A DNA stretch of 64,000 nucleotides, taken from positions 3,069-67,068 of the forward strand of contig JAWXUU010000011.1 of NCBI GenBank assembly GCA_044426085.1, given 5' to 3'. Shown in pieces: positions 10,271 to 50,217 of this stretch (its first letter is position 1; every line of letters starts with the position of its first letter). This DNA is from Bacillota bacterium. GTDB taxonomy: Bacteria > Bacillota > Clostridia > Christensenellales > CAMQZB01. The notes beneath the pieces are model-generated. The model saw only the letters and a list, made by a program, of their open reading frames with translations. It had not been told where the DNA came from and searched no databases. Made by a program: the position numbers and the translations under genes.

Positions 10271-10360
<90 letters not shown>

Positions 10361-35997: not shown

Positions 35998-36001
35998 TTG
36001 T

Positions 36002-36077
36002 GGTTCATTAGCTCAGGTGGTAGAGCACATGACTTTTAATCATGTTGTCCGGAGTTCGAATCTCCGATGAATCACCA
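36002..36077 (+). tRNA. tRNA-Lys (UUU)
   Basis: Acceptor GGTTCAT/ATGAATC, anticodon loop CTTTTAA, encoded CCA. Confidence 0.9.
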
Positions 36078-36080
36078 TTC

Positions 36081-36156
36081 GCATCTTTAGCTCAGTCGGT
36101 AGAGCAAATGACTCTTAATCATTGGGCCCAGAGTTCGAATCTCTGAAGATGCACCA
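36081..36156 (+). tRNA. tRNA-Lys (CUU)
   Basis: Acceptor GCATCTT/AAGATGC, anticodon loop CTCTTAA, encoded CCA. Confidence 0.9.
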
Positions 36157-36163
36157 GAATTCT

Positions 36164-36247
36164 GCGGATATGGCGGAATTGGCAGACGCGCTAGACTTAG
36201 GATCTAGTGTCTACGACATGGGGGTTCAAGTCCCTTTATCCGCACCA
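36164..36247 (+). tRNA. tRNA-Leu (UAG), integration target of E2
   Basis: Acceptor GCGGATA/TATCCGC, anticodon loop CTTAGGA, long variable arm, encoded CCA. Its 3' part is repeated at 49005-49060 and partly at 49227-49254. Confidence 0.9.
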
Positions 36248-36251
36248 TTCT
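36196..36251 (+). repeat. attL of E2 (56-bp core repeat)
   Basis: CTTAGGATCTAGTGTCTACGACATGGGGGTTCAAGTCCCTTTATCCGCACCATTCT, identical to 49005-49060. Confidence 0.9.
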
Positions 36252-36417
36252 TAAAGAGCCTTTCAGAAATGAAAGGCTCTTTTACTTTTCCCTTTATTTA
36301 TGGGGGTTGTAGCCATTTTTTGTGCTTTTATTTTTATAGATTTTAATTTTTGTTAAATTTCATATTTTTGCTAAAAAACAGCAAATTTTCGCAAAAAAAT
36401 AAAAAAACTGTAATTTA

Positions 36418-36440
36418 TTGGGGTACTAATTGGGGTACTA
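36418..36440. promoter_or_regulatory. Candidate arm-type sites (2 x TTGGGGTACTA, 12-bp period)
   Basis: Direct repeats at 36418-36428 and 36430-36440, just 3' of the int stop. Related TTGGGGACTA / TTGGGGGTT lie at 48934-48952 near the other end. Confidence 0.5.
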
Positions 36441-36476
36441 GATACCATCTTAAAATCAATGCTTTTTTGCGATAGT

Positions 36477-37574
36477 CTACTTTTTGTCTAGTGTATTGTT
36501 ATTAAACTGCTCGGCTATTTGTTGATCAAACTTTTCGCTTTCACGTAATGCAAAATCTTCACGCACATCGGTGTATATATCCATAGTCATGGCTATTGTT
36601 GTGTGCCCCATCCACGATTGCACAACCTTTTGTGATATACCATATTCATGGCAATTTGTCGCAAAGGTCTTGCGTAAATCTCGCACTGTTCGATTTTCAA
36701 AAATTTTGTGAAATTGACGTGTAACATAATCGGGTTTGTAATCAAATTTAAGTTCTTTATCTCCCAACAACCGTTTAACACTATCAAAGAACGGTAACAT
36801 CCTTTGCGACTTCTTAGTTTTTGTCCCATTAACTTTGAAAAAGTTTTCTGTGCATTCTTTCGGATTAAATCGCAAAGCTTCGCTTCTGCGTTGCCCAGTT
36901 AAAAGCACGAATATATAATATTTTTTCAAATTCTCTGACACTGCTTTTGTTTTGAACAAAATTTCTTGTTCTGCTTTCGTTAGTGCAATAGAATGGATTT
37001 TATCATAGACAACAACATTTAATTGCTCCGCTGGATCAATTTTAATTACGTTGTTTATTCTTGCCGTTTTAAACAGTGATTTTATATAGCACCTTATTTT
37101 ATGCCTTGTGTTTCCGCCTTCGATATTATTCAAAAGTCGTTGCAAATCTGCATTAGTTATCCGTCTGATGTTTTTAGAGCCGATATTGCCACGGATATGC
37201 TTATTGGTTATGTACTGAATACTTTTGAATGTATCTTTAGAACATGAAGGCTTTTTATATATTTCTAGCCATTCATCAAGCCATTGCCCTACTGTTGTAA
37301 CAGTAGGCTTTTTTGTTTTTTCTGGTTTAAACTCGGCTTTCCATGCTTTGTATTTTTGTACTACAATAGCTTGTGTTTTGCCGTAAAAACCTATTCTTTC
37401 ACCTTCGTATGTGATTCTTAGCTCCCACACGTTGTTTTTTCTTTTTCTTAAAGTGTTTCCTGCAACTTTCATTATTTCTTCTTCCTTTTGGTTGTTATTT
37501 TGAAATAATGCAGTTTCTTTCGCACTTCCCCCCGCTGGTTCGTACCAGTTATGACTTTGTGTTGCACCATCCAT
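36477..37574 (-). CDS. Tyrosine recombinase / phage-type integrase
   Basis: NNVWELRITYEGERIGFYGKTQ arm-binding-type N-terminus. GQRRSEALRF, LRKTFATNCHEYG, GHTTIAMTMDIY. Coordinates give the maximal ORF. An AAGGAAG RBS favours ATG 37472. An upstream mini-ORF with a strong SD is out of frame (see findings). Confidence 0.88.
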   Translation of the reverse strand: MDGATQSHNWYEPAGGSAKETALFQNNNQKEEEIMKVAGNTLRKRKNNVWELRITYEGERIGFYGKTQAIVVQKYKAWKAEFKPEKTKKPTVTTVGQWLDEWLEIYKKPSCSKDTFKSIQYITNKHIRGNIGSKNIRRITNADLQRLLNNIEGGNTRHKIRCYIKSLFKTARINNVIKIDPAEQLNVVVYDKIHSIALTKAEQEILFKTKAVSENLKKYYIFVLLTGQRRSEALRFNPKECTENFFKVNGTKTKKSQRMLPFFDSVKRLLGDKELKFDYKPDYVTRQFHKIFENRTVRDLRKTFATNCHEYGISQKVVQSWMGHTTIAMTMDIYTDVREDFALRESEKFDQQIAEQFNNNTLDKK

Positions 37575-37710
37575 AAATGAAATTAATCCATGGATAAGTG
37601 CGTATTGTTTGTTGATTGCAGTTTGCTGTTCTTGGTTAGCTTCTGCGATTGCTAGTAGAATTTTTTATATTTTCTTTCATATAAAAACTCCTTTTAATTA
37701 ATAAATTCTT

Positions 37711-38052
37711 TTAATTAATAAATTCTTTTGATGTTTGAAGCCCTTGTATGTATGCCATGGCTTTTATTTTGCCGATAGCATTTAATGTGTTAAATGCTAT
37801 AAATAACTCATGTTCTTGTTTTGTTAATGCTGGTCGTTGTTCTGTGCGTTCAATCACCTCTTTATTTTCCCTCCCGAGAAGATGATCGACAGAAACATTA
37901 AAAAAGTCTGCCAAAAGAATGAGTTGTTCTGGCGAAGGTTGCCTTCTGCCCGTTTCATAGTGTGCGTACGCTTGATAAGTGATACCTAATACATTTGCAA
38001 CTTCTCGTTGATTAAGTTTGCTTCCAGTACGCAAGTTGTATAAATTATTCAT
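37711..38052 (-). CDS. XRE-family HTH repressor (cI-like)
   Basis: MNNLYNLRTGSKLNQREVANVLGITYQAYAHYETGRRQPSPEQLILLADFFNVSVDHLLGRE (track ORF extends to 38091). Confidence 0.8.
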   Translation of the reverse strand: MNNLYNLRTGSKLNQREVANVLGITYQAYAHYETGRRQPSPEQLILLADFFNVSVDHLLGRENKEVIERTEQRPALTKQEHELFIAFNTLNAIGKIKAMAYIQGLQTSKEFIN

Positions 38053-38106
38053 TCTTTGATAATAGTTTAAGTTTGTGAAAAAAACAAACAAAATGTGTGA
38101 TAGTAC

Positions 38107-38135
38107 TTGACATACTACATATAGTGTGGTATTAT
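38107..38135 (+). promoter_or_regulatory. E2 rightward promoter flanked by direct-repeat operators
   Basis: TTGACA (38107-38112), 17 nt, TGgTATTAT (38130-38135). AACAAAATGTGTGATA (about 38084-38102) and AACAAAATGTTTGGTA (about 38145-38162) flank it. Confidence 0.55.
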
Positions 38136-38341
38136 TAGCACATCAAACAAAATGTTTGGTATAAAATGCATTAATTGCAATCATCATACCTCCTTAAAAT
38201 ATAATAACGGCTATCTGGGTGCGAGCCACCCAGAACGGCTGGAGGGGCGGTGACAAAAGGGAACATATGAAACAGAACTAACCGCCGTGGGGCGTTAGAA
38301 ATAAAAAAGTGCTTGGCGTAGCTGGGCGAAGGATATGAAAA

Positions 38342-38611
38342 ATGAATAAACTGGAATTTGTTACATCGCATGGGGATGATTTGAAATCATTCAACGATGA
38401 ACAAGAAAGCAACAAGAAAACAATCAATGCATTGAAATTTAAAAATCAGCTGCTGAAAGAAAAGTTTAGCTTGCCAGAAACGCAAGCGGAGTATGAAGAG
38501 AACTTGCGAGTAATCAACGAACTTGAATTTGCCAACACGTTGCTGGCGAAAAATATCGTGAAGTCGCAAAACATCATCGCAAGCGCGTTGGTAACAGAAG
38601 AATGGGATTAG
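38342..38611 (+). CDS. Hypothetical coiled-coil protein
   Basis: 89 aa. First gene of the rightward operon. Charged and helical. Confidence 0.5.
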   Translation: MNKLEFVTSHGDDLKSFNDEQESNKKTINALKFKNQLLKEKFSLPETQAEYEENLRVINELEFANTLLAKNIVKSQNIIASALVTEEWD

Positions 38612-38774
38612 GGTGAAATCATGCAACATAAAATAATGCAAATATATAAATCTTTTAATGATTGGTTAAAAAGAAACATCAAAGAAATTATATGGCTAGT
38701 TTGTTTGAGCGGTGTAACATATGGTGTTGCAACTTATTTGCTAGTTCCATTGTTTGGAATATAGGCGGTGCAAG

Positions 38775-38987
38775 ATGGCGGAGATTAGGATCACGGGAAC
38801 GAAAGAAGAGCTTGACAGCTTGTTCAGCAAAATAAATGGTGATGAAGATATAAGGATTTCGCAAGTGCAAAACGTGCGGAATGAATTTTATCCGAATCAG
38901 ATCGGCAAGAATGCATTTATGGGATATATTAATATATCTTTTGTCGGTCTTCAAAATGCCAGTGACAAAGTGGCTAGAAATATCTAG
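38775..38987 (+). CDS. Hypothetical small protein
   Basis: MAEIRITGTKEELDSLFSKINGD... The ATG at 38775 lies inside the track ORF 38754-38987. Confidence 0.4.
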   Translation: MAEIRITGTKEELDSLFSKINGDEDIRISQVQNVRNEFYPNQIGKNAFMGYINISFVGLQNASDKVARNI

Positions 38988-39163
38988 CAAACTTTTTTCA
39001 TATGTGGGGCTGGCGTAGTTAGCCCCTTCCTTTGAATCAAAAAGGTGGATTATGTGCAAAAAATATGTGAATAGGGCACGAGAGCCCAACATATTTCAAA
39101 CTTAGGCGAATAGTTTTATTCGCCTATTTCCACGTAAAAATATAGAAAGGGAGAAAAATAATA

Positions 39164-39427
39164 ATGAATTGGAAAATATTAGCAATTGTGTTGATTGTAG
39201 TTGTTGTTATCGTTGGGGCTTATAGCTTTGGAATCGGGTATTTCACTGAAGAAGAATCCGTTGACGATGGAACGGCGGAAGTGCTAGAAAGTTTTGATGT
39301 AAGTGGTAGCATTCAATCGGACTTCTGGGATAGTTTCAGTGATTGGCTTTGGGCTAATTTGTGGTGGATGTGTGGTGCTGGTCTTATCGTTTGGGGTGTG
39401 ACAAGCTATGCAAAATCACGAAAATAA
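39164..39427 (+). CDS. pVIII-like small membrane protein (candidate major coat protein)
   Basis: 87 aa. MNWKILAIVLIVVVVIVGAYS signal-like helix, acidic segment, Trp-rich hydrophobic helix, basic tail YAKSRK. The N-terminus aligns with E1 13991-14242. Confidence 0.6.
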   Translation: MNWKILAIVLIVVVVIVGAYSFGIGYFTEEESVDDGTAEVLESFDVSGSIQSDFWDSFSDWLWANLWWMCGAGLIVWGVTSYAKSRK

Positions 39428-39444
39428 ATAGGAGAAAAATAACA

Positions 39445-40902
39445 ATGAAAACGAAAATTAAAAATAAAAGTAAAATTATGAAACTGCTTTCAGTTTCGCT
39501 TGTGGCTGTTCTGTGCATGTCAACGTTGGTGGGTTTCGCTAACCCTGCCGAAACGTGTTTCGCTTGCACAGATTGTGATGATTGTGTGTCAGATATGGCA
39601 CTTGATGGCGATGACATGCCAGTGGCTCAAATTGCTTGCGATGAAAGCTGTGGATGTGGCGGAACTGACTACACACTTTATGGCTGTGATTCCATTTGTG
39701 AATGTGGCACTGCAGTAGCTATCATTGATGACGGCATTGCAACTATCAGTGATGATTCAGAAGAAGACACACTTGTTGTTGGAACATACACATATTCATA
39801 TGATTTGGGACTAGCTTCTTATTCATATGATGAATCAGAACTAACTGCAGATAACGAAGATATCACAACAACATCATACAGCCCATCAATCTCTGGTGAT
39901 GCTGATGTGACAATTTCAGCTTCTGTTCAATATCCAGAAAGCGCGGACGGTGATGAAGGTCTAGTTCAAATTTACTATCTTGGACCAGATGAGAGCACTT
40001 TCGCTGCATATCTAGACGACCCAGAACAAGTCATTGCTGAAATCGATTATGAAGAAACATACACATATTCATACACATTTGAAGACCTTGAAGCTGGTAT
40101 GCATAAAATCATTTTCAAGTTCTATTCAGACGATGATGACGTGAACGCAGTTTACACAACAGCAAGCACAGTTATTGTTTCTGGAACAATCACAGAAATG
40201 TCAACAATATCAGACGTATCAATGACTTCTGGAACAGACACAGATGTTTCATTCACATTCACAACAAACGGTGATTTGGGCGACCTTTCATATGTTTGGT
40301 ATCTCAACAATACAGCATACGAAACAACAGAAGATCCAGAAATCACTTTGAACACTCTTGAAGCTGGTATCTACACTATGTTTTGTAGAATCAAACCATC
40401 AGTTGGAACAGCTGTCGATACAAACTCTTTCACAGTGACAGTAGGTTCTGCCGTTGGCGAAGGTGGTATTATCATCGTTTCGCAACCAAGTGACGTACAA
40501 GTTAAAGCTGGTGAAGCTGCAACAGTTTCAATCTCGATGACAGCAGAAGACGGTCTTGCTATTGGATACGAATGGTATATCAACGATAGTGCTATTGAAA
40601 ACAGCAACACATCAACAATTTCATTCAAAGACCTTTCAGTTGGTTCGTATGACGTATATTGTGACGTTTCTATCGATGGCGAATATTCTTTCACAACAGA
40701 CATTGCAACGATTTCTGTTATCGAAGAAGACGCAGACGCTGACACTGAAACAGACGCAGACGCGGACGTTGACAGTGAAGAAGATGAAGAAACATTCTTG
40801 ACAAAAGCAAACAACTGGTACGACGAAAACACAACTCTATTTTGGGTTATTATCGGTCTTGGTGTTGTCGTTATTATTTATCTAGTAAAGAAAAATAAAT
40901 AG
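39445..40902 (+). CDS. Secreted, C-terminally anchored surface protein with two Ig-like modules
   Basis: AGGAG RBS before ATG 39445 (track ORF opens at 39361). 485 aa. Cys-rich N-terminal part, long alignable stretch with E1 14260-15564 (..VSGTITEMSTIS..), acidic (AD/TD) linker, and a TM helix ending KKNK. Confidence 0.78.
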   Translation: MKTKIKNKSKIMKLLSVSLVAVLCMSTLVGFANPAETCFACTDCDDCVSDMALDGDDMPVAQIACDESCGCGGTDYTLYGCDSICECGTAVAIIDDGIATISDDSEEDTLVVGTYTYSYDLGLASYSYDESELTADNEDITTTSYSPSISGDADVTISASVQYPESADGDEGLVQIYYLGPDESTFAAYLDDPEQVIAEIDYEETYTYSYTFEDLEAGMHKIIFKFYSDDDDVNAVYTTASTVIVSGTITEMSTISDVSMTSGTDTDVSFTFTTNGDLGDLSYVWYLNNTAYETTEDPEITLNTLEAGIYTMFCRIKPSVGTAVDTNSFTVTVGSAVGEGGIIIVSQPSDVQVKAGEAATVSISMTAEDGLAIGYEWYINDSAIENSNTSTISFKDLSVGSYDVYCDVSIDGEYSFTTDIATISVIEEDADADTETDADADVDSEEDEETFLTKANNWYDENTTLFWVIIGLGVVVIIYLVKKNK

Positions 40903-40910
40903 GTGAAAAC

Positions 40911-42260
40911 ATGAAGAAAAATACTGTTAAAAAATTGAATACTGTTTTTGTCAGTTTTCTGCTGATATTAACAGTATTTTTCTGTTCTTTTGGTTCATGT
41001 TTTACCACAGCTTTTGCAAGTGACTTATTCCCTTGCGATTGCCCAGATTGTTCTGACGGCACAACAACAACGCAAATAACAACAGATTGCACAGCGAGTG
41101 GGTGTGTGGATGGTGAAATAACAACAGAAGTATCTTCAACATGTTTGACTTGTTCTGGTAATGCTGTCGTTTATACATCTACATCAGCTACATGTACTAC
41201 TTGTAGTGGTGTTGGAAGTTTTGTTTGTTCGTCATGTAGTGGAAAGGGTTACATCACTTTTGGGGAAGACATTGATGATTATACATCATATCATTGTATT
41301 GCATGTACAGCATGTGGGGGTTTCGGTGGTAGTCCTGTTGGGTATGGTTCATCAACTCTTGCTAAAAGTCAATTTGATTCCCGTGTTTTGAGTGGCACTG
41401 CCGCATATGGTTCGGGTTCAATTTCATGTTCTGTGTGTTCTGGGACAGGCACAAAAACAACAGTAACATCATCAGACTGCCCAGACTGCACCGACGGCAA
41501 TATATATACTACAGCAACATCAGATTGCCCAGCTTGTATCGATGGTGAAATAACAACAGAATCAACAATCACATGCCCAACGTGCGACGGCACTCAAATT
41601 ATATATATCGGACTGGACAACCTTTCCACGATACCGACAGTTCTCATGACAGAAGACACAGAATTCACTGTCGTATTCACATATGGTGAACTTGGTGATG
41701 TGGGTTCTTTAGAATTTGTTTGGTATATCAACAACATTGCATATAAAGTCACGGATACGGCGAGTTTAACACTCACTGAGCTTCCAGTGGGTATTTATGG
41801 AATGTATTGTGAAATAACTTCATCGGTAGGTTTTTCCACAACCACAAACCAGTTTGAAATACAAGTGAATCCAGCACAGCAAACGACGTATATTCAAATA
41901 GCACAGCAACCTTCATCTTATACGATTAAGCAAGGGGAATCGGTGGCTATTGAACTCGATGAAGAAAATGCTTCAGCAGTTGTTTGGTATGTGAACGATA
42001 TTGAAACAGCGTCTGACGTCATGGAAATTGACCTTTCCGTTTATGATATCGGGGTTTATGAAATCTATTGTGAATATACAATCGAAGAAGAAAGCTTCAC
42101 ATCAGACGTCGCAACGGTTTCTATCGTTAACGATGACGGTTTTACAGAAGATATTGAATCAGCTTGGGATAATGTTGTCAGTGGCTTCTGGATAGCTATT
42201 GGGGCGGGTCTTGCAGCTGCATTACTTGCATATCTTGCAGTCAAAGCAAGTAAAAAATAG
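40911..42260 (+). CDS. Secreted Cys-knuckle protein with two Ig-like modules and a C-terminal anchor
   Basis: 449 aa. The N-terminal half aligns with the N-terminal half of E1 16341-17906 (CPDCSDGTTTTQITTDC..CLTCSGNAVVYTSTSATCTTCSGVG). TM helix ending KASKK. Confidence 0.8.
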   Translation: MKKNTVKKLNTVFVSFLLILTVFFCSFGSCFTTAFASDLFPCDCPDCSDGTTTTQITTDCTASGCVDGEITTEVSSTCLTCSGNAVVYTSTSATCTTCSGVGSFVCSSCSGKGYITFGEDIDDYTSYHCIACTACGGFGGSPVGYGSSTLAKSQFDSRVLSGTAAYGSGSISCSVCSGTGTKTTVTSSDCPDCTDGNIYTTATSDCPACIDGEITTESTITCPTCDGTQIIYIGLDNLSTIPTVLMTEDTEFTVVFTYGELGDVGSLEFVWYINNIAYKVTDTASLTLTELPVGIYGMYCEITSSVGFSTTTNQFEIQVNPAQQTTYIQIAQQPSSYTIKQGESVAIELDEENASAVVWYVNDIETASDVMEIDLSVYDIGVYEIYCEYTIEEESFTSDVATVSIVNDDGFTEDIESAWDNVVSGFWIAIGAGLAAALLAYLAVKASKK

Positions 42261-42272
42261 GAAGGTACTGCA

Positions 42273-43250
42273 ATGAAAAAAGCACGACAACAATTTAATA
42301 AACGAATATTTGCATTCATGATTGCTGTTGTGCTTTTATTCAGCGCGGTAGTCCCAACTGTGGTTTATGCAAGTAGTTATTATGAATGTGACTGCACGGC
42401 ATGCGTTGATGGGGTGATAACAACAACGTCAACAATCGATTGCACTAACACAGCTTGCGTGAATGGCACAGTGTCAACAACAGTTTCTTCAACTTGCACG
42501 GCTTGCAGTGGCAGTGGTTATAGTTATTCATTTTGCCCAACTTGTGGCGGTGAAGGATATTATGTCACGCCTATCTATTATAAAGAAACCACTGTTGTCG
42601 GGTATCTGCTTTACGGTTGCACAACTTGTGGCGGTTCTGGTGATTCTTCTGCAGTTAGTTATTCTGATTTGAATTTCGACAACATCACATACGGCTGTGG
42701 ACGGGCTGTCTGCTCATCTTGTACAAACGGCACTGTATACACCACAACAACGGAAACTTGCACAACGTGTTCTGGCATTGGAACGCTCACAGAAACAACA
42801 TTTGAAGACTGCACCACATGTGACGGCAGTGGAAGCTTTGTTTATGGGATAGACAATATATCCAGAATATCCACGCAAATTATATCGCTGGGTGATAGCA
42901 AAGAAGTTTCTTTCACTTTCGATACTGTTGGTGATGTTGGGGATATTGAATATTATTGGTTTGTTGATGACGTGATGACCAAAATGACAATTGAATCAAA
43001 TTATACGATAGATATTGCAACAGTTGGAACATATGAAATCTATTGCACAATAGTTCCCGCGGTTGGGTATACGTATCAGACGAATACTTTTAAGGTGTAT
43101 GTGACTGGCTCAATTTTTGACAGTTCAAGCACTGATACTGATGATAGCAGTTCGCTTTCGGGGGTAAATATGAATTATGTTTATATAGCACTTGCGGTTT
43201 TAGCTGTTTGCGTGATAGCGGGTGTAGTGATTATAAGAAAAAGGGGGTAA
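42273..43250 (+). CDS. Secreted Cys-knuckle protein with one Ig-like module and a C-terminal anchor
   Basis: 325 aa. It aligns with the second half of E1 16341-17906 (FCPTCGGEGYYVTPIYYKETTVVGYLLYGCTTCGGSGDSSAVSYSDLNFDNITYGCG). TM helix ending IRKRG. Confidence 0.8.
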   Translation: MKKARQQFNKRIFAFMIAVVLLFSAVVPTVVYASSYYECDCTACVDGVITTTSTIDCTNTACVNGTVSTTVSSTCTACSGSGYSYSFCPTCGGEGYYVTPIYYKETTVVGYLLYGCTTCGGSGDSSAVSYSDLNFDNITYGCGRAVCSSCTNGTVYTTTTETCTTCSGIGTLTETTFEDCTTCDGSGSFVYGIDNISRISTQIISLGDSKEVSFTFDTVGDVGDIEYYWFVDDVMTKMTIESNYTIDIATVGTYEIYCTIVPAVGYTYQTNTFKVYVTGSIFDSSSTDTDDSSSLSGVNMNYVYIALAVLAVCVIAGVVIIRKRG

Positions 43251-43254
43251 TAAA

Positions 43255-43395
43255 ATGCTTAATCTTTTACGATTTATTATAATCCTATTCATCGTGTTAT
43301 TTGCGGTGGATTATTTGGGTTATATAGATTTTTTTGAGTTCGTTGAACCAGACACAGCGATTTTCAGCTTTTTGAGCGGGATATTTGGAGAATAA
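43255..43395 (+). CDS. Conserved 46-aa hydrophobic micro-protein
   Basis: MLNLLRFIIILFIVLFAVDYLGYIDFFEFVEPDTAIFSFLSGIFGE. GGGGG RBS. Not in the ORF track (under 60 aa). Homologue of E1 17909-18040. Confidence 0.65.
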   Translation: MLNLLRFIIILFIVLFAVDYLGYIDFFEFVEPDTAIFSFLSGIFGE

Positions 43396-43398
43396 AAT

Positions 43399-44970
43399 AT
43401 GAAAACAATGAAAAATAAAATAAAAAACAACAACAAAAGAATACTCGCATTGACCCTCACACTTTGCGTTATTCTAGCACTCTTTGCGGGTTGCACGTTC
43501 AGTTCTGCAGATACTTGCACGGATCCAAACTGCACAAGCTGTAGCCATGTTGTTTACGCTTCTGAATATGATGTCGAAGTAGCGGCTTACATAGATTGTC
43601 CAGATTGTACGGGCGGTGGTGAATATGTTACAACCACAAGCGATTGCACAACGTGTGGTGGTGATGGTTTAGTTGGTTCATTTGCTACTGTCTCTTGTAC
43701 AAATTGTAATGGTACTGGATATGCTGATTCTACTATCACATGTACTGCATGTAGTGGCTCTGGTCTCTTGGAGTGTTCAACATGTAGTGGATTGGGTTAT
43801 TACGATGTTATAGAAGAGGGCACTGGAACACCTATACGTTATACTTGTGCAGATTGTGGTGGTTGTGGAAAAAGAATGGGTTCTTTTACAACAACTGGAA
43901 CTGGTTATGTTTCTTGCACTATATGTGGTGGTGATGGATTATATGATACATCGCGTTGTACAGAGTGTGATGGTTCGGGGAGTACATATTCTTATTTTAC
44001 AGCTACATGTACCGCAACTGGTTGTGATAACGGAATTATTACTACATCTACTTGGATTTCATGTAGCACTTGTAATGGTGTAGGTGGTTGGATTGAAGAT
44101 GATGATACAACAGATACACCTTCGCCAACAATATCTCCATCTGTTGGCTGTTTATCATGTGGTTATGATGGCACAATTGCTTGCTATGATTGTGATGGAT
44201 TGGGGTATTACGATGTAGAAGAACAAGGTACTGGAACGCTGATAAGATACACCTGTGCAACTTGCGGTGGTGATGGTGGTAGACTCGATGCCGTAGGCTC
44301 AACAACTGGAACAGGTGAAATAGATTGTCCATATTGTACAGATATTTCTTATGCTACAATAACTTTTATAACAAATTATGCTACAACTGAAACTATGACA
44401 GCTACAATAGGTGAAGTTATTCCAACGTTTAGGGGCGTTTCTGCAGATAGTTATTATCTAACATCAGACAGTGATGGAGATATTATTGTTTCCAAAAGTA
44501 CGCTTGTTTCTGATGATATGACATTGTATATTTGGTTTGATGGGTACGAACCTTCATATACTTATGTTTATATTTATCTATTTGAAAGTAGTTGGTCGGT
44601 TTTTGGCACTTGGGAATTAGTCGATTATATATCTGTAGAGGTTGGTTCAACTATTGGTGATATTGAATCGGATTATATAAGCAGTGATTATGATTTGTAT
44701 TATAATCAAGGCAATACTATTTCCGTTTCATATTCTGATATTATTGAAGATTCTACCGATGGATATACATATATTTATGCAATATATAACGGTGATGATT
44801 CAGATGATTCAAGTTCAAGTGATTCCGCTTTCAGGGATGGTGTTGATAGTGCTCTTGATAATATATTCGGAACAGATTGGTTTGGTTCTTCAGATTCAAA
44901 CTGGTCAACTTACGTTGCAATAGCACTTGTTGTTCTGGTACTTCTATTGTTTATAGTAGTTTTTAAATAA
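43399..44970 (+). CDS. Lipobox-bearing protein with duplicated DnaJ-type zinc-knuckle array and a C-terminal anchor
   Basis: 523 aa. Lipobox-like LFAGC. Same internal duplication as E1 18044-19705 (CSTCSGLGYYDV..RYTCADCGG versus CYDCDGLGYYDV..RYTCATCGG). Cys-free C-terminal part, acidic/Ser linker, TM helix. Confidence 0.8.
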   Translation: MKTMKNKIKNNNKRILALTLTLCVILALFAGCTFSSADTCTDPNCTSCSHVVYASEYDVEVAAYIDCPDCTGGGEYVTTTSDCTTCGGDGLVGSFATVSCTNCNGTGYADSTITCTACSGSGLLECSTCSGLGYYDVIEEGTGTPIRYTCADCGGCGKRMGSFTTTGTGYVSCTICGGDGLYDTSRCTECDGSGSTYSYFTATCTATGCDNGIITTSTWISCSTCNGVGGWIEDDDTTDTPSPTISPSVGCLSCGYDGTIACYDCDGLGYYDVEEQGTGTLIRYTCATCGGDGGRLDAVGSTTGTGEIDCPYCTDISYATITFITNYATTETMTATIGEVIPTFRGVSADSYYLTSDSDGDIIVSKSTLVSDDMTLYIWFDGYEPSYTYVYIYLFESSWSVFGTWELVDYISVEVGSTIGDIESDYISSDYDLYYNQGNTISVSYSDIIEDSTDGYTYIYAIYNGDDSDDSSSSDSAFRDGVDSALDNIFGTDWFGSSDSNWSTYVAIALVVLVLLLFIVVFK

Positions 44971-44982
44971 GGTGGTGAAATT

Positions 44983-45252
44983 ATGACAATCAAAATTTGG
45001 TTTTTAACAATAAAATTCGGCAACAAACTGACAAGCTATGAAAAAAACTACATAAAAATGCTTATCCGCCTTTATAAGACAAATATACGAGCTTTAAAAA
45101 ACACGGAAAACAAAAAGCCTTATGAAACTGAAATTATCAGAATAAAAGGCAGAATAGACGGTGTTTGTGAAATTTTGCAGTATAGAGCGGAATTCAGCCA
45201 AACATCTGATGATGTCAAAATTTTTAAAAAGAATAATCTGATAAAGCTATAG
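44983..45252 (+). CDS. Small protein conserved upstream of the ATPase
   Basis: 89 aa. The C-terminal block aligns with E1 20066-20428. Confidence 0.55.
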   Translation: MTIKIWFLTIKFGNKLTSYEKNYIKMLIRLYKTNIRALKNTENKKPYETEIIRIKGRIDGVCEILQYRAEFSQTSDDVKIFKKNNLIKL

Positions 45253-45263
45253 GAGTGAATCAT

Positions 45264-46403
45264 ATGCGGTTTATCAAAGAAGCTAAAAGCAACTTGCTAT
45301 ACAATCTTGCACTGATCGCAATATCAATCGCACTCACTGCACTTGGCTACGCAGTTTTTCACTTTTTCGGTGGCGTAGTTCCCGTGCTACTTTTTGCGGG
45401 TGGCATTGCATTGATAGGTTGCTCAACAATAAGTTTTATCGAGTGCCTAGTTTTAAGTAGACAAGCATTCAAAAGCCAGAATGAATATAAAAAGGTGCAC
45501 GCGGTGGAAGAAATCACAGGTCCCCCCGGTGCTGGCAAAACAACGCTTACAAACGTGTTTTTTTATCTTTCAGTGCTGAACATGCAAAAGAAGCTGGAAA
45601 AAGACTACTACGTGAACGAGTGCCACGCCCTTAAAGCTCACTGGATTAAAAATTCAGTGTTTCGTGAAAATCTTGCAGAAACGCGCTATGCGAAAGAATA
45701 TTATGATAAATCCGAATTTTATCCATGTGCATTTTCTAATCAGTCCATGAAAATCAAGGGCGTATCGGTGCATAAGTTCACGCACGATCACAGCGTAGGA
45801 AAAAAGGTTGTTCCGCCATATTCGGTGGAAGATGTGGAAGAAGCGTCTGATATCTACTACACAACAACACATGCAGACAGAGTGCCAGAATGGGGAACAG
45901 ACGCAAGGTTCAAACGCCATCAAGTGAAAGAAACTTTTCTTGTTGAGCAAGAAGTTACGAACATAAATAAAGATGTCCGAAGGGTAGTCGGCGTGACAAT
46001 GGAACTTGAAGAAAGAATCATGCTAGGACAACCCCAGCTTGCGATGTGGATTTATGGGGAGATGCTGAAATTTGGAATGAAGCACAACATCATAAACGGA
46101 GCATTCACAGATATCTTTGACTTTCTTGGCAAGATAATAGGCAAAGTGGGCGTTGTTAAGTGGAAATATTATACCATGTCGGGAACGGAAAGCAAGATCC
46201 AACGACCGCCCCAAAAAGGTACATTTACAGCGTTTATGGACTTACCAATAGAATTTGACAGTCGTATGTTCAGAAACGTTCCACAGACAAGGAATCTTAA
46301 GGATAAACGTATGCCAGAAGGATATAAGAGCCTTGTTTTGGAAAAAGACAGTGCAGAAGCAGAGCTTATGCGAACTGCTAAAATGAAGAAAAAGGAAGAT
46401 TAA
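45264..46403 (+). CDS. Membrane-anchored P-loop NTPase
   Basis: AGGAG 8 nt before ATG 45264 (track ORF opens at GTG 45255). N-terminal TM helices, Walker A GPPGAGKT, acidic Walker-B-equivalent PPYSVEDVEEAS aligned with PAYSYILLDEAG of E1. Confidence 0.7.
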   Translation: MRFIKEAKSNLLYNLALIAISIALTALGYAVFHFFGGVVPVLLFAGGIALIGCSTISFIECLVLSRQAFKSQNEYKKVHAVEEITGPPGAGKTTLTNVFFYLSVLNMQKKLEKDYYVNECHALKAHWIKNSVFRENLAETRYAKEYYDKSEFYPCAFSNQSMKIKGVSVHKFTHDHSVGKKVVPPYSVEDVEEASDIYYTTTHADRVPEWGTDARFKRHQVKETFLVEQEVTNINKDVRRVVGVTMELEERIMLGQPQLAMWIYGEMLKFGMKHNIINGAFTDIFDFLGKIIGKVGVVKWKYYTMSGTESKIQRPPQKGTFTAFMDLPIEFDSRMFRNVPQTRNLKDKRMPEGYKSLVLEKDSAEAELMRTAKMKKKED

Positions 46404-46404
46404 T

Positions 46405-46689
46405 ATGAACAATTATATATACATAAATCAGAATAAAAAAAGGGATAAGCTCGTTAGGGAGCTTTCAAACCAACTCAACAGCGTGGAAGCTGTGGAAAGG
46501 TTTCTTACAGATAAAGTTTACAGCGAGCTTACTGGAATTCGGATACCCTTACCAGATCAAGAGCGAGCCATCAAGCGTTTCACAACGATGAAACGCAATG
46601 ATATAAACAAAATTTTAGCAAGTATATATTTGCCAGTCAATGATGATATGGATGAACAATCCATCTTCGAAAGTCTATACTTGTTATAA
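46405..46689 (+). CDS. Hypothetical small protein
   Basis: 94 aa. Starts 2 nt after the ATPase stop. Confidence 0.45.
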   Translation: MNNYIYINQNKKRDKLVRELSNQLNSVEAVERFLTDKVYSELTGIRIPLPDQERAIKRFTTMKRNDINKILASIYLPVNDDMDEQSIFESLYLL

Positions 46690-46778
46690 AATCACATGAA
46701 AATATGTAAATAAATACGCTTAAAAAGCTCATTTTTAAGTGGTGTTTTAAGTCATGTCAAAAATAGGGAGAAAAACAT

Positions 46779-47582
46779 ATGAATGAAAGCAATCCAAGTT
46801 ATTTCGCAATCTTGCCAGCAAATGTGCGATATGATAAAAATATCAAAGCCAGTGCAAAATTGTTATTTGCTGAGATCTCAGCTCTTTGCAATAAAAATGG
46901 CACATGCTTTGCCAGCAACAAATATTTTGCCGACTTGTACGGTGTCGACAACAGATCTATACAGCGTTGGTTGACATCTTTGTCAGATAATAATTACATA
47001 ATAATCGATAATAATTCTAGTGAAAATAGCACTAGAAGAATCATATATCTTGTCACGCCTAATGGCGGACAAAAATGTCATACCCCCATGACAAATTTGT
47101 CATACCCCCATGACAAAAATGTCACCCATAATAATAATATTAATAATAATATTAATAATAAAGAATCTATCTATCATTCTAGTAAAGAAGTTGATACTTC
47201 TGATAGATTGATTGATAGTGATGATTTTACATCAGAAGGAGATGTGAATAATCATGAGTTAGAATTTTATAAAGAAATTGTGAATGTTGAATTAGAGAAA
47301 GGAGTTTGCAAGCATGTTGAATTTATGAGAAATATAATAGCCGAGATTGTGAGTAAGGAATTTTGGTATGTAAACGGTAACAAAGTTAGGTCAGCTGATT
47401 ATTTAAAAGAATTGTCAGTCATATTACGTATAAGTGATTGTAATTATCAGATAAACGAAGTTTTGGAAACCGTTGACATGCAAAAAGGCATTAAGAACAA
47501 GCTAGGCTATGTTATTTCAAGTCTATACAACAAATGCAAACAAATATCTCTAGAAAACAGTCAAAGTGCGGGTAAATGGTAA
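46779..47582 (+). CDS. RepA_N / DnaD-like winged-helix replication initiator
   Basis: N-terminus YFAILPANVRYDKNIKASAKLLFAEISALCNKNGTCFASNKYFADLYGVDNRSIQRWLTSLSDNNYIII fits the RepA_N-type pattern of Firmicute plasmids and phages. Direct repeats lie in the central coding region. Confidence 0.55.
   Translation: MNESNPSYFAILPANVRYDKNIKASAKLLFAEISALCNKNGTCFASNKYFADLYGVDNRSIQRWLTSLSDNNYIIIDNNSSENSTRRIIYLVTPNGGQKCHTPMTNLSYPHDKNVTHNNNINNNINNKESIYHSSKEVDTSDRLIDSDDFTSEGDVNNHELEFYKEIVNVELEKGVCKHVEFMRNIIAEIVSKEFWYVNGNKVRSADYLKELSVILRISDCNYQINEVLETVDMQKGIKNKLGYVISSLYNKCKQISLENSQSAGKW
47051..47127. repeat. Intragenic iteron-like direct repeats (candidate origin)
   Basis: TGTCATACCCCCATGACAAA at 47076-47095 and 47098-47117 (22-bp period, each containing TGTCAT/ATGACA). 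Half-sites TGTCACGCC (47051) and TGTCACCC (47120). Confidence 0.55.
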
Positions 47583-47698
47583 ATTAATTTTTCTATTGCC
47601 AATACAGCTTGCTGTGTTGCGAAAAATTACCGCACTGGCTATTATCCAAGAAAATTACTATCTCAAACGTAGTGAAATCTAAAAATAATGACAAAGTC

Positions 47699-47766
47699 GT
47701 GCGTAGCACAATAGAAATGATGTAATCGTTGCGTAGCAACAAACCATACAACAGTCGCGTAGCGAC
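47699..47766. promoter_or_regulatory. Three covarying GTA-loop hairpins downstream of the initiator gene
   Basis: GTGC-GTA-GCAC (47699-47709), GTTGC-GTA-GCAAC (47728-47740) and GTCGC-GTA-GCGAC (47754-47766). Confidence 0.45.
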
Positions 47767-47795
47767 GTTTCGAATTTTTGAAAATGGGGGTATTT

Positions 47796-47999
47796 ATGAT
47801 AAACAAGAAAAAATACAGTGAAACAACAATGAAAAACTGGAGCAAAGACGAGCTTATAGATTATATCCGCATGCTAGAACATAATAACGAAGCAATCGAC
47901 CAGCGAGCTGACAGAATATCTGATATATTACTGCAAGTATACAATGAAGATGAAGTAGTCGCAAAGGCGCTGGATAAATTTTTAATCAAAATGATTTAA
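47796..47999 (+). CDS. Hypothetical small protein
   Basis: MINKKKYSETTMKNWSKDELIDYIRMLEHNNE.. GGGGG RBS before ATG 47796. Confidence 0.45.
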   Translation: MINKKKYSETTMKNWSKDELIDYIRMLEHNNEAIDQRADRISDILLQVYNEDEVVAKALDKFLIKMI

Positions 48000-48197
48000 G
48001 GCGGTGTGGAATGATCGATAAGATGAAATTAGTTAAAAACCAAGGGGGGGGGGTGACTCCTTGAAGTGCAAGAAGTGTGGGCGAAAATATGAAGTAAGGG
48101 ATGAAAACGTATTTGAAATAGAAACGCTGTTAAACGAAAATTGTTTAATAACGTATTGCCCTTTCTGTGGGGCGGAAAATTTAAAGGAGTAAAGCAT

Positions 48198-48386
48198 ATG
48201 AATGAAACAAATGAAATAATTGCAAAGCTACAAGCTGATAACGAACAGTTGAAAGAAGAAAATAGAATCTTACAAATAGAAAATGACTGCATGATTAAGC
48301 AATGTGTATCAGAAGTAAAGGCACGCAATGATATATGCAAAAAAATGCAAAAACTGCTAATTAAATATTGGTATAATGAGGAGTAA
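48198..48386 (+). CDS. Hypothetical coiled-coil micro-protein
   Basis: MNETNEIIAKLQADNEQLKEENRILQIEND.. AAAGGAG RBS before ATG 48198. Confidence 0.45.
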   Translation: MNETNEIIAKLQADNEQLKEENRILQIENDCMIKQCVSEVKARNDICKKMQKLLIKYWYNEE

Positions 48387-48391
48387 AACAT

Positions 48392-48676
48392 ATGAAAAAA
48401 CAAGAAGATATTTTGAAAAAATTTGGTTTTAAGAAGTATAACTTCGGTGAAGGATATTTTCATTATGAAAAAGATGATTATTATTTCGTGATAAATTATA
48501 ATACAAAACACATTGTAAAATTTTATAAAGAAACAAATGAGCCTTTGTCACTTACCTTTGAGGATGTGGATTTGTTAAGCAGAGTTTTTAAAGGCAAATA
48601 CTACTACGAAGAAAACATGTGGTTTTTGTTTTGGTGTTTTGTTGGGGCTCTTGGCTTTTTGCTGATGTGTTTGTAG
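48392..48676 (+). CDS. Hypothetical protein with C-terminal TM helix
   Basis: 94 aa. GAGGAG RBS. C-terminal WFLFWCFVGALGFLLMCL. Confidence 0.45.
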   Translation: MKKQEDILKKFGFKKYNFGEGYFHYEKDDYYFVINYNTKHIVKFYKETNEPLSLTFEDVDLLSRVFKGKYYYEENMWFLFWCFVGALGFLLMCL

Positions 48677-48699
48677 CTTACGAGCAAGTGGGGGTAACG

Positions 48700-48873
48700 A
48701 TGAAATATAAACTATTACCGCAAGTTATAATAAACTACTACATAGATAATCGAACAGAACGCATGTTCCACTTCTGTATGCGTTGTGCAAAACTAAACAA
48801 CTGCTTTTCAGCTGTCTGGGATGTTCTCGGTCATGACTTCGTCAGCATGTATTGGGATTTTCACCATAATTAA
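48700..48873 (+). CDS. Hypothetical small protein
   Basis: MKYKLLPQVIINYYIDNRTERMFHFCMRCAKLNNC.. GGGGG RBS before ATG 48700. Confidence 0.35.
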   Translation: MKYKLLPQVIINYYIDNRTERMFHFCMRCAKLNNCFSAVWDVLGHDFVSMYWDFHHN

Positions 48874-49004
48874 TTAGATTGTGATCACAAAGTAAGAAAG
48901 TGTAGAAAGAGAATAAATTGTGATCACAATTTGTTGGGGACTATTGGGGGTTGAAGTGCTCAGAAACCGCATTCTATAAGGGATTCCGTGCCACTTTCGA
49001 GTGG

Positions 49005-49060
49005 CTTAGGATCTAGTGTCTACGACATGGGGGTTCAAGTCCCTTTATCCGCACCATTCT
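49005..49060 (+). repeat. attR of E2 (56-bp copy of tRNA-Leu 3' part)
   Basis: Identical to 36196-36251. Followed by its own hairpin terminator AAAGCACCTAGGTA..TACCTAGGTGCTTT. Confidence 0.9.
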
Positions 49061-49226
49061 AAAGCACCTAGGTAATCATACCTAGGTGCTTTTACTTTGC
49101 CCTAAAATACCAAAAGGGACTTGAACACGGAGCGACCCGAACGCAGAGAGGGGGGAAACGTGCGATGAAACGCACGTTTTTAGCGTAGCGGCGTGAAAGT
49201 GGAGTGGCAAAGCCACGCAACGGAGC

Positions 49227-49254
49227 AAGTCCCTTTATCCGCACCATTCTTAAG
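49227..49254 (+). repeat. Third, partial copy of the tRNA-Leu 3' end (att scar)
   Basis: CAAGTCCCTTTATCCGCACCATTCTTAA matches 36225-36252. An inverted fragment AAAGGGACTTG lies at 49111-49121. Followed by hairpin AAGACCCTCT..AGAGGGTCTT + T run. Confidence 0.8.
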
Positions 49255-49329
49255 ACCCTCTAGCCAGAGGGTCTTTTTACTATCCTTTTTTAGGTTGTAG
49301 GCAAATAAATAAAGGAATGGAGGCAGTGA

Positions 49330-49821
49330 ATGAATAGATACTATATAGAAATAGAAGAAGAAAAAATTGATGATATAGAATCGATGTTATTGTGTTTTTC
49401 TGATGGTTATGAATCAATTCGAATTTTTGGTGAAGAAATCATTGATATGAAGCTTGAATTTGAAGAAGAAATGGTTTTTAATAACATTGGATTTAACAGA
49501 GTTTTAAAAGACGGATTTCTAAAAATTAGATTCAGCAAGAGCTTGAACTCAAATAAAAGATGTGCGTGTTTCAATTTCTCAAAAAATGACAAGATAAAGA
49601 AAAAGCAAATCGAAAAAAGATTGTGTGATTTATGCGATATCCAAGCCATAGAAGTCCATAAGAAAAGCAACAATTGTGAAGAAGAATTCGATGTGCCGTG
49701 TAAAATCAAAATCAAGCACGGCAAAATCAAAGCCAAAATTTCTTCAAGCTGCCAAATTGATAAAGATGGTGACTTACTAATCCAAATGGGCGAATCATCA
49801 GGGTTTGTCAAAACAAAATAA
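49330..49821 (+). CDS. Hypothetical protein
   Basis: 163 aa, GGAGG RBS, acidic N-terminus, Lys/Cys-rich C-terminal half. No family recognised. Confidence 0.5.
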   Translation: MNRYYIEIEEEKIDDIESMLLCFSDGYESIRIFGEEIIDMKLEFEEEMVFNNIGFNRVLKDGFLKIRFSKSLNSNKRCACFNFSKNDKIKKKQIEKRLCDLCDIQAIEVHKKSNNCEEEFDVPCKIKIKHGKIKAKISSSCQIDKDGDLLIQMGESSGFVKTK

Positions 49822-49849
49822 AACTAAATAGATTAAAAACAGAAATAAA

Positions 49850-49890
49850 AAATGCACCCAAAGCCGAATAAAGCTTTCGGTGCATTTTTT
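49850..49890 (+). terminator. Rho-independent terminator
   Basis: TGCACCCAAAGC..GCTTTCGGTGCA followed by TTTTTT. Confidence 0.7.
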
Positions 49891-49985
49891 GCAGGTTGAG
49901 AATGGCGTTCCCAACCTATGCCAATGCATAAAAGAGAGCTTTTTTAGGCTCTGTGTCAAATGTTGGGGTGGAAATTGGGGTGGAT

Positions 49986-50132
49986 TTAACCCTTTTTTTG
50001 GGGTTTTACCTTGAGTGCTTCGCTAAGTTCAAATTCAGGTCTAACCTCGGTATATGTGTTCATTGTCATACTAATATTAGTGTGTCCAAGCCATTTTTGC
50101 ACTACCTTTGGTGATATCCCTTTTTCGTGGCA
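49986..50132 (-). pseudogene. Integrase remnant (C-terminal about 48 codons only)
   Basis: Minus-strand translation CHEKGISPKVVQKWLGHTNISMTMNTYTEVRPEFELSEALKVKPQKKG* aligns with the C-termini of both intact integrases. Homology stops abruptly near 50132. Two TTGGGGTGGA repeats (49963-49984, 12-bp period) lie 3' of its stop. Confidence 0.75.
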
Positions 50133-50217
50133 GTTTGGGGTGATAATTTTAATATTTTTTCCTAATCTTTATAGGAAGCAAGAGCTTGATTTTTTAGAGG
50201 TTCACAAAGATTATTTT

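Follow-up and report, generated by a model that had tools for sequence, protein, structure and literature searches.

The 64,000-nucleotide stretch of DNA analyzed here (the window; positions 3,069 to 67,068 of contig JAWXUU010000011.1, assembly GCA_044426085.1) carries an element of about 12.8 kb in a tRNA-Leu(UAG) gene, which we call E2, and a diverged companion, E1, in a tRNA-Tyr gene. E2 is probably an integrated, apparently complete inovirus-like (filamentous-phage, Tubulavirales) prophage in a low-GC, Clostridia-type host. A 2026 taxonomy paper takes a hydrophobic helical coat protein together with an FtsK-like ATPase as the hallmark of filamentous phages, with replication modules that vary and include the non-nuclease HTH protein RepL (PMC13595969). 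On this basis, and from its ATPase, its coat-like protein, its membrane proteins and the replication proteins (Reps) of its relatives, we read E2 as inovirus-like. The kind of element, filamentous phages of Gram-positive anaerobes, is known; what is new is the lineage, the O-like iteron replicon in place of a nickase, and the anchored proteins with zinc-knuckle and immunoglobulin (Ig) modules.

E2 begins with an integrase gene (int) and the gene for an XRE repressor, both on the minus strand, followed by a promoter, small open reading frames (ORFs) and the genes for a coat-like protein, an Ig/PKD-like protein, two CxxCxGxG-rich proteins, a 46-aa ORF and a lipobox protein with further CxxCxGxG motifs. 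An 89-aa protein, a transmembrane (TM) ATPase, a 94-aa protein, the replication initiator and five small ORFs complete the order. One long rightward block encodes only membrane-inserted proteins together with a TM-anchored P-loop ATPase.

A distant pI/Zot-like ATPase

The gene at 45255..46403 (+ strand) encodes a morphogenesis-type ATPase, distantly similar to Zot and pI, with two N-terminal TM helices, a Walker A motif (GPPGAGKT), a Walker B motif and an EQ..N..D.RRVV motif. Searched against PHROG, it gave a weak match to phrog_197, annotated as 'Zot-like toxin' (E = 0.003). A family profile was built from the E1 and E2 ATPases and three close relatives, and an exhaustive search of 1.84 billion proteins with this profile (E ≤ 0.001) returned 196 cluster representatives. 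Fifty family members were then scanned: 13 matched Pfam Zot (best 5e-9), 14 matched the Zot-like PHROG, and none matched the FtsK_SpoIIIE, TraG/VirD4 or TcpA-type families. The family member from locus L009 exceeds Pfam's own Zot cut-off. When the family was aligned with M13 pI in hhalign, the segment from Walker B to Q..R was aligned (E = 1.3e-4, probability 53%), and a family hidden Markov model (HMM) run against all ORFs of M13, phage B5 and plasmavirus L2 found its best match in M13 gene I. Sequence searches of solved structures with the ATPase, alone and as the family profile, returned P-loop noise only.

Roux et al. (2019) described inoviruses of Gram-positive hosts with an 'atypical pI', that is, a Zot-like domain with one or two N-terminal TM helices and without a C-terminal extension (PMC6813254 supplement). 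Compared by described layout, the E2 ATPase shares this architecture (iPF_00013): it has the N-terminal TM anchor, lacks the C-terminal extension and matches no better ATPase family. E2 therefore appears to possess, remotely, the Zot/pI-type membrane-anchored ATPase of filamentous phages (Tubulavirales / realm Efunaviria).

Coat-like and membrane-anchored proteins

The 87-aa protein encoded at 39164..39427 (+) is major-coat-like in its sequence features. A signal-like N-terminal helix is followed by a middle part with 11 acidic residues, a Trp-rich hydrophobic helix and a basic KSRK tail, which together make up a procoat pattern. By these features alone the ORF fits the description of a filamentous coat protein (30-90 aa, one TM helix after the signal peptide, acidic N-terminus and basic C-terminus). 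It is conserved in E1 and in the related loci L034 and L037, with 43% identity to the E1 protein and 72% to that of L034.

Downstream of the coat-like gene lie the genes for four large anchored proteins and a micro-ORF, all on the + strand. The first (39442..40902) encodes an acidic protein of 486 aa with a signal peptide, Ig/PKD/cupredoxin-like repeats and a C-terminal TM anchor, and the next two (40911..43250) encode Cys-rich proteins (449 and 325 aa) in which zinc-knuckle repeats of the CxxCxGxG type occur together with an Ig-like module, a signal peptide and a C-terminal anchor. The hydrophobic micro-ORF of 46 aa (43255..43395), conserved in E1 (48%) and L034 (64%), is a candidate for a small tip protein. 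Last comes a 523-aa protein (43399..44970) with a lipobox (LFAGC), 11 CxxCxGxG motifs that match Pfam DnaJ_CXXCXGXG (7.9e-9), and a C-terminal anchor. One or more TM helices are found in every ORF from 39164 to 44970, and each of the four large proteins has an N-terminal as well as a C-terminal helix. Secreted, membrane-anchored arrays of DnaJ-type zinc knuckles would represent an unusual class of putative receptor-binding proteins. On either side of the ATPase gene are a basic 89-aa protein (44983..45252, +), conserved beside the ATPase in relatives, and a 94-aa protein (46405..46689, +) that separates the ATPase from the initiator and is conserved in the E2 lineage.

Replication module and mini-hairpins

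The initiator gene (46779..47582, +) encodes an O/DnaD-like protein with a winged helix-turn-helix (wHTH) domain. HTH_36 is its sole Pfam domain (5.5e-11), and in PHROG it matches replication-initiation, DnaD-like and O-like families (phrog_19658, 7.4e-27) and not a rolling-circle nuclease; a solved-structure search with this protein returned nothing. A candidate origin lies within the gene itself (47068..47165, +), where two 22-nt iterons (GACAAAAATGTCATACCCCCAT; 47068-47089 and 47090-47111), each with TGACA-N4-TGTCA, and a partial third (47112-47124) are followed by an AT-rich tract (47125-47165). Iteron-type (lambda O-like) replicons combine a wHTH initiator and tandem iterons with an AT-rich tract in or next to the initiator gene, and E2 has the layout of such a replicon. 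In locus L004, whose ATPase is 69% identical to that of E2, the initiator gene contains four similar iterons at the corresponding position, and the order ATPase, 94-97-aa ORF and wHTH initiator (HTH_36 or Lin1244_N) is found in L003, L004 and L005. Since this initiator arrangement and the iterons recur in independent relatives, the non-nuclease initiator is a stable trait of the lineage and not damage.

Directly after the initiator gene, three GC-clamped mini-hairpins with GTA loops, d(GCGTAGC), lie within 47697..47768 (+) and form a candidate signal for single-strand initiation or packaging. DNA mini-hairpins of the types d(GCGNAGC) and d(GCGNNAGC) are unusually stable and occur at complementary-strand origins of single-stranded DNA phages (PMC13037366). 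In the window GCGTAGC occurs nine times (2.4 expected) and GCGNAGC 30 times (12.7 expected), and three GCGNAGC motifs fall within 63 nt after the initiator gene. Clustering of GCGNAGC is seen on the + strand: in E2, in addition to these three, at 38316 in the leader of the first rightward gene and at 49183 in a unit that flanks the element, and in the flank units of E1 as five copies of GCGAAGC (23463-24157). When L004 and L005 are aligned with E2, mini-hairpins stand at the corresponding positions; their loops are G..A, and their stems differ by compensatory changes (GTGC/GCAC to GTAC/GTAC). In L034 and L036, two GCGAAGC motifs occupy the gap that precedes the initiator gene. Conservation of these mini-hairpins on the coding strand may thus be taken as an indirect hint of a single-stranded stage.

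Integration site and integrase

The integration target is the tRNA-Leu(UAG) gene at 36164..36247 (+; ARAGORN, tag anticodon; Rfam tRNA, 57.6 bits), the last of a seven-tRNA cluster called by ARAGORN. A direct repeat of 56 nt forms the left attachment (att) copy, attL, at 36196..36251 and the right copy, attR, at 49005..49060, both on the + strand. Its first base lies in the anticodon loop, two positions ahead of the anticodon, and its last lies 4 nt beyond CCA, so that it comprises the 3' 52 nt of the tRNA and 4 nt more, and the 3' part of the tRNA gene is now supplied by the element. The two copies are identical at 56 of 56 positions and the next base is mismatched; the repeat finder itself called 36196-36254 against 49005-49063 at 98%. 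The start-to-start spacing is 12,809 bp. A 21-nt part of the repeat occurs three times in the window, against 0 expected by chance. In an Rfam scan of 36000-50500, tRNAs alone reached family cut-offs. An element-borne terminator hairpin (36253..36282, +) directly follows the rebuilt tRNA gene.

The integrase is a tyrosine recombinase, encoded by a 365-aa ORF at 36477..37574 (-) with Pfam domains Phage_integrase, SAM_3 and Int_M. It was aligned end to end with the E1 integrase and three integrases from related loci, and R229, K252/254, R301, H324 and Y334 are kept; at the His position of the HxxR motif, E2 has Arg, and both E1 and L030 have Lys. The catalytic R, K, R, H and Y set, the adjacent tRNA and the duplication of its 3' part at the far end are the features of tRNA-integrating prophages with tyrosine recombinases. 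Repeats near both att copies look like arm and accessory sites. On the left, a tandem pair of ATTGGGGTACTA (36417..36440, +; seven occurrences of the pattern against 1.4 expected) is a candidate arm-type integrase site. On the right, the arm of the attachment region (48879..48957, +) contains two TTGTGATCACAA palindromes (48879-48890 and 48918-48929), a TTGGGG repeat and the T-arm-like TGGGGGTTGAAGT, and TTGGGGACTA, which is similar to ATTGGGGTACTA, stands near attR at 48934-48943 followed by TTGGGGG.

A contig in the Logan collection, L001 (12,813 bp), is 100% identical to E2 and was considered as a possible excised circle. We rejected it: its ends lie 30 nt into each att repeat and fit a break in a k = 31 assembly graph, and L001 is therefore uninformative on excision.

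Repressor, promoter and candidate operators

The XRE/HTH_3 repressor gene (37711..38091, -; Pfam HTH_3, 6.8e-14) is divergently transcribed from a near-consensus promoter. Its start is probably the ATG at 38052, as in the gene call on L001, which gives a product of 113 aa. The rightward promoter region (38085..38161, +) contains, at 38107-38135, the strongest match to a promoter within the element, TTGACA-17-TATTAT preceded by TG (TGnTATTAT), in which 11 of 12 positions agree. Two 18-nt direct repeats, CAAACAAAATGTKTGRTA, flank it at 38085-38102 and 38144-38161; the pattern is found twice in the window against 0.09 expected, and both copies are candidate operators. Next to the repressor gene, a perfect 17-nt tandem duplication (TAATTAATAAATTCTTT twice, 37695-37728) reaches from the end of the XRE gene to just upstream of the Shine-Dalgarno (SD) sequence and ATG of the integrase.

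Relationship of E2 to E1

E1 lies between two copies of a 59-nt repeat in tRNA-Tyr (10302-10360 and 23314-23372). A preliminary description of this DNA had presented E2 as a second, strongly diverged member of the E1 family, set between perfect 56-bp repeats that run from the anticodon loop to 4 nt past CCA, with the gene order of E1 and five extra small ORFs before attR, and with its own integrase and att specificity and its own set of repressor and operators. The repeat agrees to the base, and the ORF list reproduces the order with its five extra ORFs. The divergence also holds, with eight protein pairs at 26-48% identity and DNA that is almost unalignable. By BLASTP, the E2 proteins are identical to those of E1 at 36% (integrase), 31% (XRE repressor), 43% (coat-like protein), 42% (Ig protein), 40-46% (Cys proteins), 48% (micro-ORF), 35% (lipoprotein) and 26% (ATPase), and blastn aligned only four short segments at 69-75%. 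Each element has its own target, tRNA-Leu for E2 and tRNA-Tyr for E1, and its own control region, as seen in the 31% identity of the repressors and in the direct repeats at the E2 promoter.

The shared order was found to extend to the position of the replication initiator, but not to its homology: the E1 initiator (22048-23229) is a rolling-circle protein with Rep_trans and Rol_Rep_N domains, unrelated to the wHTH protein of E2. E1 also has extra genes, encoding a 266-aa protein with five TM helices between int and XRE (11697-12497) and a 147-aa protein (13046-13489). The latter had no family match and no BLASTP match to any E2 protein, and as a guess could be a single-strand-binding candidate. 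The 521-aa Cys protein of E1 looks like a fusion because it matches both the 449-aa and the 325-aa protein of E2 by BLASTP.

The two elements had further been called old paralogous lineages, a view we replace, as they are better read as independently acquired relatives. Locus L034 (GCA_028748465.1 contig JAMHJH010001311.1) is a mosaic, with an E2-like left half and an E1-like right half. In the genes for the coat-like, Ig and Cys proteins and the micro-ORF it shares 57-72% identity with E2, in those for the lipoprotein, the ATPase and their neighbors 41-71% identity with E1, and it is integrated in tRNA-Tyr like E1. Because L034 combines both, lineages of the E1 and E2 types recombine and 'paralogous' is the wrong term.

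Distribution of related elements

The preliminary description had proposed that genomes and metagenomes be searched to define the family, and these searches located a wider ATPase family in metagenome-assembled genomes (MAGs) of gut Clostridia at tRNA genes, close relatives being rare. Word-indexed searches of 5.8 billion protein clusters gave four clusters for the ATPase and four for the lipoprotein, and four to six each when the ATPase family profile, which contributed little more, was included. When GTDB representative genomes, IMG/VR and JGI metagenomes were scanned with the E1/E2 ATPase alignment, no close relative turned up, and tblastn with three ATPase family members gave no match in 50,697 GenBank phage records. 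Matches of the wider ATPase family comprise 22 loci in GTDB genomes, from Christensenellaceae (one Christensenella sp.), other Clostridia MAGs, one Bacillota MAG and one Eubacterium sp. assembly, and 22 metagenome loci, at least one of them labeled human gut, with one distant IMG/VR contig. Several of the loci in gut Clostridia MAGs show a tRNA, int, xre, TM proteins and the ATPase in order, and in L023 a 46-nt repeat in tRNA-Gln bounds 12.6 kb.

The replication modules next to this ATPase vary. The lipoprotein search led to L034 and L036, which have the same structural module in the same order with an initiator of the REP_ORF2-G2P type, a Rep family of inoviruses and plectroviruses. More distant ATPase relatives adjoin REP_ORF2-G2P (L007), Rep_1 (L030) or a Rep_OBD plus S3 helicase domain protein (L009). 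At least five unrelated initiator types are therefore found beside one ATPase family: Rep_trans, REP_ORF2-G2P, Rep_1, Rep_OBD plus S3 helicase, and wHTH/DnaD_N-like. The combination of one structural module with three non-homologous initiators (Rep_trans, G2P and the O-like iteron type) represents a clean natural case of replication-module swapping.

Proposed life cycle

We propose the following model for E2. The repressor would hold the rightward operon off, and on derepression the integrase would excise a 12.8-kb circle by recombination within the 56-nt core. The winged-helix initiator may then bind the three iterons in its own gene and open the adjacent AT-rich tract, where replication would start. 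At the membrane the 87-aa coat-like protein would cover the single-stranded + strand, and the pI/Zot-like ATPase would extrude it without lysis, with the micro-ORF protein and the four large anchored Ig/zinc-knuckle proteins forming the filament ends and binding the next host. The three d(GCGTAGC) mini-hairpins may prime complementary-strand synthesis or mark the strand for packaging.

Evaluation of the assignment and its alternatives

Several observations weigh against an inovirus-like prophage. The link of the ATPase to pI/Zot, as judged from sequence, is remote although consistent: the E2 protein alone had no Pfam match, B5 pI aligns with it at Walker A only, and an AlphaFold model from a 7-sequence alignment (predicted local distance difference test score, pLDDT, 56) was too poor to give fold-level support, as was that of the lipoprotein (five sequences, pLDDT 37). 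The 87-aa protein had no Pfam or PHROG match and no homology to a known coat family, and the small ORFs had no informative match in these databases, with no candidate single-strand-binding protein recognized among them. At 12.8 kb and with four large anchored proteins, E2 falls towards the upper end of the inovirus range. The preliminary description had taken two intact copies as a sign of an active, self-maintaining element; E2 does look complete, and the signs of activity that were looked for did not appear: no fetched locus longer than 3 kb showed the terminal overlap of a circular contig, and no empty site was found. The frame of the integrase gene is also broken, as discussed below.

The weakest step of the inovirus reading is the formation of single strands without a nicking enzyme. 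Pfam and PHROG scans detected no rolling-circle nuclease in E2, its closest relatives likewise lacking one, and the usual single-strand-making enzyme (Rep_trans, HUH nickase or transposase), which E1, L034, L036, L007, L030 and L009 all have, is not among the E2 proteins. Such a dedicated enzyme is usual in filamentous phages and is no longer counted as defining (PMC13595969). It is conceivable, if rather unlikely, that the E2 lineage (E2, L004, L005 and perhaps the wHTH-bearing elements of Clostridia MAGs) joins an extrusion module to an iteron/O-like replicon without nicking enzyme, and either obtains single strands by an undescribed route, such as strand displacement that starts at the O-like origin, with priming at the mini-hairpins, or makes particles with double-stranded DNA, or depends on a co-resident relative. 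The E2 module makes it testable whether a filamentous phage can dispense with a nickase.

The same missing enzyme, together with an iteron and AT-rich replicon embedded in the initiator gene, would suit a membrane-vesicle or pleomorphic temperate virus similar to plasmavirus L2 or the archaeal pleolipoviruses, with a double-stranded DNA genome, an iteron origin, Ig/zinc-knuckle spikes, release by budding and the ATPase as a packaging or budding NTPase. The candidate structural proteins are indeed all membrane proteins, and size and lifestyle point the same way: L2 (Plasmaviridae) is, like E2, a temperate, integrating element of about 12 kb, and E2 integrates at a tRNA; L2 is non-lytic and has envelope proteins as its only structural proteins. 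Pleolipoviruses are also known to combine one morphogenetic module with several replication modules. We nevertheless consider such a virus unlikely. With the ATPase family as the only one compared, the family HMM had no significant match in any L2 ORF, so that neither homology to Plasmaviridae nor a Zot-like ATPase in L2 was found, and where the ATPase family can be placed it matches Zot/pI. The procoat-like 87-aa protein, the conserved mini-hairpins of single-strand type and the rolling-circle initiators in most relatives, the inovirus G2P type included, argue against it as well. A second alternative, an integrative mobilizable or conjugative-type element in which the TM-ATPase acts as coupling protein or DNA translocase and the anchored proteins as mating adhesins, is very improbable. 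It would explain the integrase, the XRE repressor and the tRNA target, and in E1 the TM-ATPase precedes by two genes a Rep_trans protein whose similarity to MobT is weak (65.8 bits), an arrangement that recalls the coupling-protein/relaxase pair of Tn916-type elements. This MobT score is, however, far below the cut-off of 600, and the coupling-protein families had no match among the 50 scanned ATPases. Pfam and PHROG scans gave no relaxase candidate in E2, so the pairing of relaxase and coupling protein is lacking, the 12.8 kb contain no VirB4, VirB6 or other transfer genes, and the coat-like gene would be left without a role.

The broken integrase frame bears on whether E2 is a defective or satellite-like relative that has no excision or single strands of its own and is either passive or uses E1 functions (Rep_trans, assembly proteins) in trans. 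The frameshift, already flagged in the preliminary description, is real: an A6 run (T6 on the + strand, 37661-37666) has an indel of 1 nt. The SD-like AAAGGAG is followed by an ATG at 37678-37680 whose frame stops after 14 codons, and deletion of one A from the run restores an integrase ORF of 400 aa. The indel is not an error of a single assembly, because L001, an independent SRA assembly, is identical over its 12,813 bp. The lack of a rolling-circle nuclease in an element that shares its genome with the Rep_trans-bearing E1 would also be expected of a satellite. However, the stretch lost by the frameshift is not conserved in the aligned relatives, and the internal Met35, with AGGAAG upstream, lies exactly at the start of the conserved part, leaving a 365-aa ORF with all aligned catalytic residues; for these reasons the frameshift was not taken as proof of inactivity. 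The other genes are all intact, the att repeats are perfectly identical, and the initiator and iterons are conserved in the independent relatives L004 and L005. E1 and E2 share no non-coding word of at least 14 nt, that is, no candidate for a common nick site. A defective or satellite-like state is thus decidedly unlikely, and E2 is probably intact as a prophage.

Comparison with known systems

The inovirus-like assignment places E2 near elements that have been described before. Whether it might belong to an already characterized class had been raised in the preliminary description, and the answer is partly affirmative, as its hallmark genes are inovirus-like and the class has already been reported from Clostridia (PMC6813254, PMC10061712). 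Propionibacterium phage B5 (Paulinoviridae) and the candidate families of Roux et al. resemble E2 in the N-terminal TM of the ATPase and in the lack of a C-terminal periplasmic extension and of a secretin gene, and B5 also shares the order coat, large anchored protein, small protein, ATPase and Rep. B5 differs in its size (5.8 kb against 12.8 kb), in having one large anchored protein instead of four, and in an ATPase similarity confined to Walker A. E2 is further set apart from B5-type phages by its integrase, its repressor and its tRNA att site, and by an initiator that is not of the rolling-circle type.

Inovirus prophages of Enterocloster and Hungatella have been shown to be secreted (Burckhardt et al. 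2023, PMC10061712). Like E2, they are integrated in gut Clostridia and flanked by direct repeats; they were detected via a pI homolog, and one of them measures 16 kb (PMC10061712). Compared by description, they fit standard pI models and are mostly 6.5-8.5 kb, whereas the E2 ATPase has no match to Pfam Zot. The Ff phages (M13, f1 and fd) have virion proteins that all reside in the membrane before assembly, a small helical major coat protein and pI as the ATPase, a logic that E2 would share through its candidate virion proteins, its coat-like protein and its pI/Zot-like ATPase. E2 differs from them in lacking the pIV secretin, as expected in a monoderm host, the gene II nickase and a recognizable gene V, and in being integrative and repressor-controlled. 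The replicon itself recalls the lambda O and SPP1 G38P organizers and iteron plasmids, with an N-terminal wHTH and with iterons and an AT-rich tract in the initiator's own gene, but in E2 it is attached to a filamentous-type morphogenesis module. RepL is recorded in some filamentous phages (PMC13595969), and no record was found of a replicon of the E2 type.

The existence and secretion of filamentous phages in Gram-positive gut anaerobes were shown only recently (PMC10061712), and E2 and E1 point to a further lineage missed by standard resources. In gut Clostridia MAGs, those of Christensenellaceae included, the wider ATPase family does occur, yet it gave one distant match in IMG/VR and none in the GenBank phage records, and current pipelines therefore probably under-count such chronic, non-lytic phages.

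Accessory ORFs and flanking sequences

Between the promoter and the coat-like gene, three small ORFs of 89, 47 and 77 aa (38342..38987, +), the 47-aa product having a TM helix, had no family matches and are closed by a terminator-like hairpin at 39006-39026. The five small accessory ORFs at the right end (47778..48873, +) encode proteins of 73, 43 (zinc ribbon), 81 (coiled coil), 94 and 84 aa.

Outside the perfect repeat, a structured unit of 193 bp (49061..49253, +) follows attR and ends in a third, 28-nt direct copy of the tRNA 3' end (49226-49253), from which we conclude that the tRNA-Leu site was used more than once. The unit has terminator hairpins at both ends and between them GCCCTAAAATACC and an inverted copy of the tRNA-Leu T-arm (AAAGGGACTTGAAC), which pairs with the third direct copy. 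It folds far better than shuffled sequence (z = -7.7), and it represents either the trace of an earlier integration or an alternative right end of E2. In the right flank of E1 (23373-24180), units of this layout with an inverted tRNA-Tyr T-arm, each of about 195 bp, stand three in tandem, and L034, in another genome, has one such unit at 10255-10500. Such flank units may be what remains of older elements, or else alternative right ends or att-only mini-elements; that the units of about 190 bp right of attR in E1, E2 and L034 are mini-elements of this last kind, moved by the integrase, is conceivable but rather unlikely.

A third integrase gene, similar to those of E1 and E2, is represented by a C-terminal fragment (…QKWLGHTNISMTMNTYTEVRPEF…; 49986-50190, -) about 730 bp rightward of the third att copy, and the tRNA-Leu site therefore contains the wreck of at least one earlier element. 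Further downstream (51274-51921; 52000-64000) the GC content drops to 25-33%. This region encodes a protein with a PBECR4 (Barnase/EndoU/RelE-like) nuclease domain (Pfam 1.8e-23) and, as judged by eye, a 583-aa protein-kinase-like protein (59087-60838) and a sigma-factor-like ORF (62762-63277), and is probably another genomic island.

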